Positions 5,488 through 25,783 of a stretch of DNA of 64,000 bases are shown one piece after another. Source of the DNA: an uncultured Nitrososphaeraceae archaeon (GTDB taxonomy: Archaea > Thermoproteota > Nitrososphaeria > Nitrososphaerales > Nitrososphaeraceae); NCBI GenBank assembly GCA_963779615.1, contig CAVZZA010000003.1, positions 864,001 through 928,000 on the forward strand, in the 5' to 3' direction. Each line of letters begins with the position of its first letter. Position 1 is the stretch's first letter. The notes under the pieces are model-generated. The model made no database searches. It was given only the letters and a program-made list of their open reading frames with translations, and had not been told where the DNA came from. The translations under genes and the position numbers were made by a program.

Positions 5488-5659
5488 TCTAATTATGAAA
5501 TAGATCTAATACAAAAACAATGTCTTTTGATTTTTTTCTTTGTTGTTAAAATTTCAACAAAATAGAAATGACTATAAATCTGACATTTCTAAGGTTGAAC
5601 CATTTAAACAAAGATAAAATAAAATATTAGAAAGTATTATGTTAAATTGTAGCTCGGGA

Positions 5660-5800
5660 AGCCCGGTCGAACCAACAAAAGCTGAGATGTTGGTGCCGAA
5701 TCTAGCGGTCAAACTCCATGTGGGGCCAAGGATTTCAGGCTCTGGATCTTATAACAAGAAAAGAAACCTGGAGACAGCAGTTCGAATCTGCTCCGGGCTA
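5660..5800 (+). tRNA. tRNA-Gln(CUG) with three introns (5670-5700, 5713-5729, 5746-5765)
   Basis: Acceptor AGCCCGG/CCGGGCT-A, T-arm AGCAG-TTCGAAT-CTGCT, anticodon arm TCAGG-CT-CTG-GA-CCTGG; removing three BHB-bounded inserts yields a standard cloverleaf; no encoded CCA. Confidence 0.9.
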
Positions 5801-5894
5801 CTTATGAAACAACATACCACATATCAATAAAGAAATCATATTTACATTATCAATTCAACAAAAAAGGTCATTTAATAATTCATAATGAGAGAAA

Positions 5895-7454
5895 TTATGT
5901 ATACGGACCTGCTTTAAATATTTCATCAGGTACCGGCTCAAACTTTTTGAAATTACTAATAAATAAATTTGATAACCTTTTCGCTGAAAAATCATATTGC
6001 TTTTTATCATGCCAAGTGTTTCTCGGATTTAAAATTACTGAAGGTACATCTGGACAGGAAGCAGGGTAATCAAGATTGAAAATGTCATGGTGATTATAAG
6101 ACACTTTATCCAAATGCCCATTTATAGCAGATGAAACTATTGAACGCGTATACTTTAGATCTATGCGCCTTCCAATACCATATGGCCCTCCAGACCACCC
6201 AGTATTAATAAGGTAAACCCTTGAATTATGCTTAGTGATTTTATCACCCAATAATTTAGCATATTCTGTAGCCCTAAGAGGCATAAAAGGAGCACCGAAA
6301 CATTGTGAGAAAGTCTCTTTTGGTTCGGTAATACCCCTTTCGGTTCCTGCCAATTTACTAGTATAGCCGGACATAAAATGATACATAGCTCCTTCTTTTG
6401 AGAGCCTTGAGACTGGTGGCAATACACCAAAGGCATCAGCTGTTAAAAAAATAATAACAGAAGGATGACCACAAATACTCGGTATAACTGCACCGGGAAT
6501 AAATTCAAGAGGATAAACAACTCTGGTGTTCTCAGTTGGACTACCGTCAGAAAAATCAGGTTCCCGCGTCGATGGATTGATCACCACATTTTCCATCACA
6601 GAGCCAAATCTAATTGCATTCCAAATTTGTGGCTCTTTATCCTTATCAAGATTAATGCATTTAGCATAGCACCCGCCTTCAAAATTAAAAACACCGGTAT
6701 CTGACCATCCATGCTCATCATCGCCAATCAATTTACGATTCTCATCTGCAGAAAGAGTCGTCTTCCCGGTTCCGGAAAGACCAAAAAATAATGCAGACTT
6801 ACCATCATTACCCAAATTGGCAGAACAATGCATAGGAAATATCCCTTTGGGAGGCAAAATAAAATTCATGATTGAAAACATAGACTTTTTTATTTCACCG
6901 GCATAAGATGTTGAACCCATAAGAACCAATTTCTTTTTAAAACTCATAATAATGAAAGTCTCAGATTTTGTTCCATCTGATTCTGGCAACGCAGCAAAAT
7001 TATTAATCGATAAAAGAGTAAACTCTGGAATAAAATTCACTCGTTCATCTTTAGAGGGTTTTATAAAAATCTGACTAGCAAATAAACTGTGCCAAGCTGT
7101 ATCTGTTATGATTCTAATAGATAAACGATTCAATGGATCTGCTCCTACAAATCCATCAAAAACATAAAGTTTATCAGTAATATTATTGTCATTAATAAAT
7201 TTTAGCATTTTATTCAATATCTTTTCAAAGTTTTCTTCTGATATCGGATGGTTAACCTTTCCCCAATCGACAGAATCTAAAGTAATATCATCTTTTACAA
7301 TAAATTTATCATCAGGAGATCGGCCGGTAAATTTTCCAGTCTTTACAGACAGAGAACCAGTAACAGACAATTCGCCTTCGCGATTTAGAATAGCTGATTC
7401 AACTAATAGAGGAACTGATAAATTCTTACACCCCTCATTAATTGCCAATTCCAT
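5895..7454 (-). CDS. pckA: Phosphoenolpyruvate carboxykinase (ATP)
   Basis: TGRSPDDKF, YAGEIKK, MHCSAN, FFGLSGTGKTTLS, IGDDEHGW, NFEGGCYAK. Confidence 0.97.
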   Translation of the reverse strand: MELAINEGCKNLSVPLLVESAILNREGELSVTGSLSVKTGKFTGRSPDDKFIVKDDITLDSVDWGKVNHPISEENFEKILNKMLKFINDNNITDKLYVFDGFVGADPLNRLSIRIITDTAWHSLFASQIFIKPSKDERVNFIPEFTLLSINNFAALPESDGTKSETFIIMSFKKKLVLMGSTSYAGEIKKSMFSIMNFILPPKGIFPMHCSANLGNDGKSALFFGLSGTGKTTLSADENRKLIGDDEHGWSDTGVFNFEGGCYAKCINLDKDKEPQIWNAIRFGSVMENVVINPSTREPDFSDGSPTENTRVVYPLEFIPGAVIPSICGHPSVIIFLTADAFGVLPPVSRLSKEGAMYHFMSGYTSKLAGTERGITEPKETFSQCFGAPFMPLRATEYAKLLGDKITKHNSRVYLINTGWSGGPYGIGRRIDLKYTRSIVSSAINGHLDKVSYNHHDIFNLDYPASCPDVPSVILNPRNTWHDKKQYDFSAKRLSNLFISNFKKFEPVPDEIFKAGPYT

Positions 7455-25689: not shown

Positions 25690-25783
25690 GGTGGGGTGGC
25701 AGAGCGGCCATGCGTTCGCCTGCAGAACAAAATAACAAAATTCAGATAGCGAATATATAAGGGTTCGAATCCCTTCCCCACCT
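25690..25783 (+). tRNA. tRNA-Cys(GCA) with 22-nt intron at 37/38 (25726-25747)
   Basis: Acceptor GGTGGGG/CCCCACC with U73, anticodon stem TTCGC/GCGAA, T-arm AAGGG-TTCGAAT-CCCTT. Confidence 0.92.

Follow-up and report, generated by a model that had tools for sequence, protein, structure and literature searches.

An upstream mimic of the 5′ acceptor strand accompanies the position 10/11 intron of archaeal tRNA-Gln genes and may act as a decoy strand during splicing

The stretch of DNA analyzed here (the window, 64 kb, G000:C3:864001-928000) belongs to a 3.17-Mb archaeal genome (G000) with a G+C content of 36%, and the element in question is the short 5′ leader of a tRNA gene that lies within it. 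Reading by hand identified positions 5660-5800 as a tRNA-Gln(CUG) gene interrupted by three introns (Table 1). Joining its exons (5660-5669, 5701-5712, 5730-5745 and 5766-5800) yields a 73-nt product that ARAGORN calls as tRNA-Gln(CUG). In its interrupted form, the gene escaped detection: ARAGORN reported no tRNA genes in the window, Rfam at the gathering score gave no match to this locus and found a sole tRNA in the window, at 25690-25783, and an Rfam search of 5500-5950 at E values of up to 10 returned chance-level matches only, none of them to a tRNA.

The leader is similar to the strand that it precedes. The segment GTAGCTCGGG (5649-5658), which ends 1 nt upstream of the gene, is antiparallel to TCCGGGCTAC (5792-5801) and can form 10 consecutive pairs with it, comprising eight Watson-Crick pairs together with U5654·G5796 and G5658·U5792. 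The resulting helix spans T-stem position 65, acceptor positions 66-72, the discriminator A5800 and the trailer base C5801. As a direct repeat, the leader nearly duplicates the adjoining 5′ acceptor strand, AGCTCGG compared to AGCCCGG, with one C-to-U change.

The first of the three introns, at position 10/11, can form a motif of the bulge-helix-bulge (BHB) type with a central helix of C5664-G5698, G5665-C5697, G5666-C5696 and U5667·G5695, two 3-nt bulges (5668-5670 and 5699-5701) and a 7-bp helix internal to the intron (5671-5677 with 5688-5694). An outer helix on the exon side, formed by nt 1-4 or the leader with nt 12 onward, was sought by eye at the locus and none was found, and the motif is therefore a relaxed one. 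A preliminary description of this DNA had noted both that the leader forms 10 pairs running through the discriminator into the trailer, and that the central helix of the 10/11 intron recruits tRNA nt 5-8 to pair with GCCG at 5695-5698; both points were confirmed in the sequence. The acceptor stem at this locus consists of seven pairs, six of them G-C. Intron 1 belongs to the known class of non-canonical archaeal BHB introns (PMC4090602), with its 4-bp central helix, two 3-nt bulges and an outer helix internal to the intron. The published text available places the motif of that class within exon and intron, and mentions no leader element that removes a competing acceptor stem. The genome contains two matches to the splicing-endonuclease domain (PF01974; 99.1 and 72.7 bits, in open frames of 226 and 222 aa), a single match to RtcB (568.8 bits) and RNase P RNA. 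The presence of two endonuclease-domain genes fits with the heteromeric enzyme of broad specificity that the same review assigns to Thaumarchaeota (PMC4090602).

Evidence on where the precursor is cut came from contigs assembled from four soil metatranscriptome runs, which derive from near-identical organisms and not from this isolate. These contigs were built from 31-letter words, a length that exceeds the 21 nt of leader plus exon 1, and their cover excludes 5560-5668; since contigs cannot give amounts, depth was not used for abundance. A 126-nt contig (a 96-nt cycle plus a 30-letter overlap) joins 5765 to 5670 and occurred in two runs from different studies, and a second contig, of 106 nt with a 76-nt cycle plus 30, joins 5745 to 5670 and occurred in a third run from a third study. 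The circles consist of intron 1, exon 2, intron 2 and exon 3, either with intron 3 (96 nt, 5670-5765) or without it (76 nt, 5670-5745), indicating that the sites 5669/5670, 5745/5746 and 5765/5766 are cut in nature. No junction at the 3′ site of intron 1 or at intron 2 was present among the contigs, and in the circles the 3′ site of intron 1 and both intron 2 sites are uncut. The possibility that the upstream copy is the true exon 1 was also considered and rejected, given that position 8 would not be U, that a 9-nt intron would be needed and that the circle junction places the cut at 5669/5670.

Table 1. Features of the tRNA-Gln(CUG) locus, in window coordinates; column counts refer to an alignment of 30 congeners
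Feature	Position	Strand	Remarks
Promoter block AGATAAAATAAAATA, TATA-like	5612..5626	+	13/15 columns invariant, both flanks variable
5′ leader: putative decoy strand 5649-5658, spacer A5659	5649..5659	+	10/11 columns invariant; pairs with 5792-5801 in the minimum free energy fold of 5645-5805
Exon 1, tRNA positions 1-10; nt 5-8 = 5664-5667	5660..5669	+	5′ splice site 5669/5670 = junction end of circular RNA contigs
Intron 1, position 10/11	5670..5700	+	Outer helix 5671-5677/5688-5694; GCCG 5695-5698; 3′ bulge 5699-5701
Exon 2, D-stem 5′ strand and D-loop	5701..5712	+	11/12 columns invariant
Intron 2, D-loop	5713..5729	+	Hand-set boundaries closing the D-arm; no RNA junction among contigs
Exon 3, D-stem 3′ strand and anticodon stem 5′ strand, anticodon CUG 5742-5744	5730..5745	+	G5745 = junction end of the 76-nt circle
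Intron 3, canonical position 37/38	5746..5765	+	Both ends = circular RNA contig junction ends
Exon 4: T-arm 5776-5792, 3′ acceptor strand 5793-5799, discriminator A5800	5766..5800	+	33/35 columns invariant
First trailer base C, partner of leader G5649	5801..5801	+	C after discriminator in 30/30 congeners

Taken by itself, the match in this genome is weak evidence, being only mildly unusual. When the 30 upstream nt were shuffled and compared with a 19-nt target, a run of at least 10 pairs arose in 207 of 20000 shuffles and a run of at least 8 in 1993 of 20000. In 36 further tRNA genes from this genome, scored as a 20-nt leader against the 8-nt 3′ strand, the longest run was 1-4 pairs in 32, 5 in one, 6 in two and 7 in one, compared to 8 for tRNA-Gln(CUG) on the same metric. 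The weight of the argument therefore rests on comparative data.

The tRNA-Gln(CUG) gene was present in all 33 congeners searched, and an alignment of 30 congeners was used to count invariant columns. These made up 13 of 15 columns in the promoter-like block at 5612-5626, 1 of 22 in the spacer that follows, 10 of 11 in the leader and 9 of 10 in exon 1, indicating that the leader is conserved to the same degree as the exons. Not one of the 10 columns of the intron-1 loop, or of the 29 columns of the trailer past C5801, was invariant, and the arms of the intron-1 outer helix differ among species, while 5695-5700 is conserved. The distance from the promoter block to the G of GTAGC is 22-23 nt in 30/30 congeners. 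In archaea, the spacing from TATA element to start places transcription initiation ~23 nt downstream of such a block, which would put the start at ~5649 (G5649), and the transcribed leader would then be little more than the complementary segment itself.

The full length of the helix is peculiar to this genome. A T at the position of 5657 in 28 of the 30 congeners shortens it to 8 pairs, and the duplex formed by such an 8-pair CUG leader has an energy of -13.6 kcal/mol, against -14.6 kcal/mol for the true acceptor strand. The earlier proposal that the leader out-competes the acceptor stem by virtue of its length thus stands for this genome, with its 10 pairs, but not as a general account, given that most CUG orthologs have 8 pairs and the UUG genes 5-8.

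Within the genome, the arrangement is confined to the two tRNA-Gln genes. In a genome-wide scan, the other tRNAs lacked two candidate 5′ strands, and only the two Gln genes have an intron with a central helix that uses acceptor nucleotides; both of them have the leader copy. The tRNA-Gln(UUG) gene (C1:194370-194478, minus strand; L051/L052) carries the leader TGCCCGGAA before AGCCCGG, together with a 10/11 intron with the central helix CGGT:GCCG, and both the intron and the leader copy were found in 30/30 congeneric UUG genes examined. Intron 1 of this UUG gene is 36 nt long and contains short tandem TTAAG-like repeats, while in most relatives it is 15-23 nt.

To extend the comparison across the order, 108 tRNA-Gln genes (CUG and UUG) from 61 genomes in 20 families were parsed, and the run of leader pairs against positions 66-73 was recorded for each. 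Left out of the 108 were the CUG gene of G048, the acceptor variant of which is unmatched by the search pattern (it reads as intron-less, with the leader CAGT), L112, at a contig end, and L113, which is another tRNA; G019, G030, G037, G038, G045, G046, G052, G053, G055 and G058 yielded at most one of the two Gln genes. The 10/11 intron was found in 85 of the 108 genes (41 CUG and 44 UUG) in 10 families. In these 85 genes, the leader run was 5 pairs in 2, 6 in 31, 7 in 41 and 8 in 11, and ended 1-8 nt before +1, while in the 23 intron-less genes it was 2 in 1, 3 in 6, 4 in 10, 5 in 5 and 7 in 1. A leader match to positions 66-71 was therefore found in 85/85 intron-bearing genes, only two of them with a run of just 5, and a run of at least 6 in 1 of the 23 intron-less genes. 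The UUG genes had 5-8 pairs, mostly 6, and their leader mostly pairs with 66-71 only, leaving the discriminator uncovered. Genes with only D-loop or anticodon-loop introns had no such leader.

Further evidence that the leader follows the 10/11 intron came from genomes in which the two Gln paralogs differ. There are eight of these in six families (G041, G057, G042, G043, G044, G059, G049 and G054), and in each of them the intron-bearing paralog had a run of 7-8 and the other paralog a run of 3-5. The intron resided on the UUG gene in seven of the eight and on the CUG gene in G042.

The pattern of substitution is likewise suggestive of pairing. A standard pair was present opposite each of positions 67-71 in 83-85 of the 85 intron-bearing genes, and internal variation among the leader pairs took the form of U-G in place of C-G, at three positions, and of C-G in place of G-C. 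The latter is found in G050. In both genes of this genome, the acceptor stem reads AGCCCCG/CGGGGCT, the leader AGCCCCG and the intron strand GCGG in place of GCCG, indicating that leader, stem and intron have changed together. The pairs of the intron 1 helix were kept in 84-85 of the 85 genes at each position, with one compensatory change. The spacer between the leader segment and +1 varied in both sequence and length, with 14 variants of 1-8 nt. The preliminary description had held that the idea would fail if orthologs kept the intron after losing the leader match, and had called for co-occurrence and covariation to be examined across the order: no intron-bearing tRNA-Gln gene among the 85 lacked the match, long runs were all but confined to genes with the intron, and the changes within the leader either preserved pairing or were compensatory.

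The distribution was also compared with a tree of aEF-2, a quick reconstruction from a single protein with a midpoint root in which 9 of 26 branches were unresolved. On this tree, the intron and the leader copy occur together in scattered families, and sister families differ in having them (f4 vs f9 for CUG, f19 vs f18 for UUG), implying several joint losses of the two. The simplest reading is that they arose early in both Gln genes, with several joint losses thereafter. Three of the aEF-2 genes (L121, L124 and L139, from G041, G057 and G050; three genomes in two families) contain one in-frame stop each (TAA, TAA and TAG, respectively).

Folding models were then used to estimate what the leader might do to the precursor. 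The minimum free energy fold of 5660-5800, without the leader, contained the acceptor stem and no central helix, while that of 5645-5805 placed the leader on the 3′ strand and formed CGGU:GCCG. For a quantitative comparison, the cost of the BHB motif was calculated as the constrained ensemble energy for a forced central helix with open bulges. For CUG genes (n=40), this cost was 2.1 kcal/mol with the native leader and 6.7 without a leader; it was lower with the native leader than without one in 40/40 genes, and lower than the mean of shuffled leaders in 38/40. For UUG genes (n=30), the cost was 3.5 kcal/mol with the native leader, 6.9 without and 6.6 with shuffled leaders, and the native leader gave the lower value in 30/30 genes in both comparisons. 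The native leader thus lowered the modeled cost in 70/70 genes, by 3.4-4.6 kcal/mol.

Based on the comparative data and these models, the leader is probably a cis-acting decoy (an 'anti-acceptor' strand), which by occupying the 3′ acceptor strand would leave nt 5-8 available to the BHB motif. The ~11-nt leader would imitate the 5′ acceptor strand by pairing with positions 66-72, and here also with 65, 73 and +1. With the 3′ strand occupied, nt 5-8 could be engaged by the 3′ end of intron 1 to give the 4-bp central helix, and the heteromeric splicing endonuclease could cut the BHB motif that the leader has enabled; without the leader, the GC-rich 7-bp acceptor stem would be expected to form and the BHB motif would not. 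The leader would also keep an acceptor-like helix stacked on the T-arm. Once intron 1 is out and the exons have been ligated by RtcB, the central helix would be gone, the true 5′ strand would displace the leader, and RNase P would remove it. The leader of most species does not pair with position 66, which could allow G7 to initiate the strand exchange. We infer that the leader-bound fold is the in vivo substrate of the endonuclease, that splicing precedes RNase P cleavage and that the strand exchange can be driven to completion. The interpretation given in the preliminary description is partly supported: its core, a leader that works as a strand linked to the 10/11 intron, is upheld by the comparative evidence, to which the modeled energy effect adds, and the enforcement of splicing ahead of 5′ maturation is conjectural.

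Several observations weigh against this proposal. With regard to the precursor itself, a transcription start near G5649 is one that we infer only from the conserved spacing of the promoter block. In the models, shuffled leaders yielded part of the energy effect for the CUG genes (4.5 vs 6.7 kcal/mol without a leader), and with the native leader in place the complete central helix had a probability of 0.00-0.56, falling below 0.10 in 14/40 genes; this measure was judged too noisy, and constrained ensemble energies were used in its place. The strand exchange is the weak point of the proposal. The duplex formed by the leader of this genome exceeds that of the acceptor strand in strength by 2.8 kcal/mol (-17.4 vs -14.6 kcal/mol), and following removal of intron 1 in silico, the mean probabilities of the acceptor and leader helices were 0.09 vs 0.89 for CUG genes (n=40) and 0.22 vs 0.70 for UUG genes (n=30). 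The nearest-neighbor model thus still favors the leader helix after intron 1 is removed, implying that the return of the acceptor stem would need tertiary structure, modification or RNase P.

The comparative data also include points on the opposing side. A single origin of intron and leader is probable, so that the association rests on joint losses taken from a quick tree. The CUG gene of G047 (L044, G047:C12) is intron-less and yet has a decoy-like leader, AGTCTGG-A, with 7 pairs of which two are G·U, and the intron-less CUG gene of G054 (L042, G054:C13) has a displaced copy of GGTAGCCCGG 19 nt upstream. Both leaders may be relics of intron loss, that of G047 possibly in the course of decay. 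A small hairpin, AGCCC...GGGCT, lies between the two copies of GGTAGCCCGG in G054. In addition, a conserved leader is found on one intron-less tRNA of this genome, and conservation alone is consequently not unique to the Gln genes: the leader of a 75-nt tRNA (G000:C4:180595-180669, minus strand; L147/L148) has a 7-pair match to its own 3′ strand. In that gene, a G-to-A change breaks the match in 9/21 congeners, indicating that conservation of a leader occurs elsewhere but that kept pairing does not. This control leader ends in ...CAG(A/T)GCTG(G/A)GCTT, with a promoter-like block ~50-60 nt upstream.

The circular RNAs bear on the same question, since an uncut 3′ site of intron 1 implies that the BHB motif is not always cut on both sides. 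We read the circles as dead-end, half-cleaved by-products, which might arise if cutting away exon 1 abolishes the central helix, such that the 3′ bulge is no longer recognized; dead-end circles of this kind fit a metastable BHB motif.

An alternative that we consider unlikely, but that fares better than the others, is that the leader helix serves mainly to keep the 10-nt exon 1 on the body of the precursor, both while nt 5-8 are engaged with the intron and after the cuts, for joining to exon 2 by RtcB, with no shift in the folding equilibrium. So short an exon makes this plausible, circles in which the 5′ site of intron 1 is cut and the 3′ site uncut would be expected if exon 1 is lost after the first cut, and the co-occurrence data fit it too. 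On the other hand, in the energy model the leader strongly affects the formation of the BHB motif as such, and after both cuts exon 1 could rebuild the 7-bp acceptor stem with nothing to hold it in place. Retention of exon 1 is compatible with a decoy role, and sequence analysis cannot separate the two.

Less likely again is that the leader helix acts solely on end processing, holding back RNase P, and possibly the maturation of the 3′ end, until subsequent steps have been completed, with the endonuclease having no need of the leader to find the BHB motif. The helix does pass the discriminator into the trailer at this locus, RNase P RNA is encoded in this genome, and in bacteria a leader paired with the 3′ end impedes the transition to the catalytic RNase P complex (PMC9433436). 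What such a block leaves unexplained is why the element tracks the 10/11 intron and not others, being missing from genes with only D-loop or anticodon-loop introns, and the usual failure of the UUG leader to reach the discriminator argues against it as well. An effect on end processing is also compatible with the leader being a decoy.

We regard it as still more improbable that the leader is what remains of a duplicated 5′ acceptor strand, dating for example to the insertion of the intron, and is kept for DNA-level reasons, such as a role as initially transcribed sequence, with no function in RNA pairing. It is a direct near-repeat of the adjoining 5′ strand, the 7-nt copy is exact in f4, f7, f8, f9, f14 and f15, and a degraded copy persists without an intron in the CUG gene of G047. 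However, the copy is kept across 10 families while the adjoining spacer varies in length and sequence, its internal changes are restricted to those that preserve pairing, including the compensatory change in G050, and it is missing in 22 of the 23 intron-less genes, same-genome paralogs among them. Finally, meaningless chance complementarity, for which it could be said that ~1% of shuffled leaders reach 10 pairs and ~10% reach 8, and that 1 of the 36 other tRNA genes has a 7-pair match, is contradicted by a match in 85/85 intron-bearing orthologs and paralogs of 10 families and by the broken match of the control gene in 9/21 congeners, and has a negligible probability.

The proposed decoy strand bears some resemblance to known systems. 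In the split and permuted tRNA genes of Nanoarchaeum equitans, Caldivirga, Thermofilum pendens and Cyanidioschyzon merolae, as presented in PMC4090602, PMC3218864 and PMC4033280, pairing outside of the mature tRNA likewise enables processing by the endonuclease. In those cases, leader and trailer pair together, form a BHB motif and are cut off by the endonuclease, whereas the leader studied here pairs, without bulges, with the mature 3′ acceptor strand, and its removal would presumably fall to RNase P. Inspection of the sequence around 5659/5660 for a BHB motif (a 4-bp helix plus a 3-nt bulge) revealed none, indicating that tRNA-Gln(CUG) does not belong to the split or permuted leader-trailer class. 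Pairing of a leader with the 3′ end of the precursor is also known from the RNase P anti-determinant of Escherichia coli, and the leader described here would likewise be expected to hinder RNase P. In E. coli, the pairing is a collinear extension of the acceptor stem by 1-2 pairs (N-1 and N-2 with RCCA; PMC9433436), whereas here the leader replaces the 5′ acceptor strand. At the tRNA-Gln(CUG) locus, A5659 (-1) is unpaired and the leader helix uses 66-72, which excludes the acceptor stem and sets the locus apart from the collinear type. A separate arrangement, and one unlike the putative decoy, was observed in the intron-less CUG genes L038, L042, L043, L048 and L049, where a leader GGT abuts +1 opposite ACC at 73-75, giving a collinear 3-pair acceptor extension. 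Bacterial attenuators (terminator/antiterminator) and riboswitch expression platforms likewise involve exclusive helices that share a strand, with a third element deciding between them, and they regulate transcription or translation when a signal is received. In the present case, the intron would decide by being there or not, and what would result is an order of RNA processing steps. Full-text searches yielded no account of a leader imitating the 5′ acceptor strand, although the primary surveys (Marck and Grosjean; Sugahara and colleagues) lay outside these searches and may already mention one.

The BHB motif of non-canonical archaeal tRNA introns competes with the cloverleaf, which constitutes a folding problem, and in the case of intron 1 it is with a seven-pair acceptor stem that the motif has to compete. 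What the data suggest is a simple solution encoded by the gene itself, a leader standing in for the 5′ strand. If this is true, it would represent a pre-tRNA leader with a specific structural function and a built-in order of processing. A more sweeping version, which we put forward tentatively and hold to be possible more than probable, is that an ancient, order-wide anti-acceptor leader is an obligatory folding switch for acceptor-adjacent introns, imposing the order of splicing, strand exchange and RNase P cleavage. Such a leader would be discarded upon intron loss, its failures might be what leaves the half-cleaved circles in soil, and leader or trailer decoys may serve other acceptor or T-arm introns in archaea.

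The leader would also provide tRNA gene finders with a sequence signature for introns of this type, which could be of use given that both ARAGORN and Rfam miss tRNA-Gln(CUG) here. The second tRNA gene of the window (25690-25783) contains a 25-nt anticodon-loop intron and is matched by Rfam at 49.6 bits, while ARAGORN misses it.

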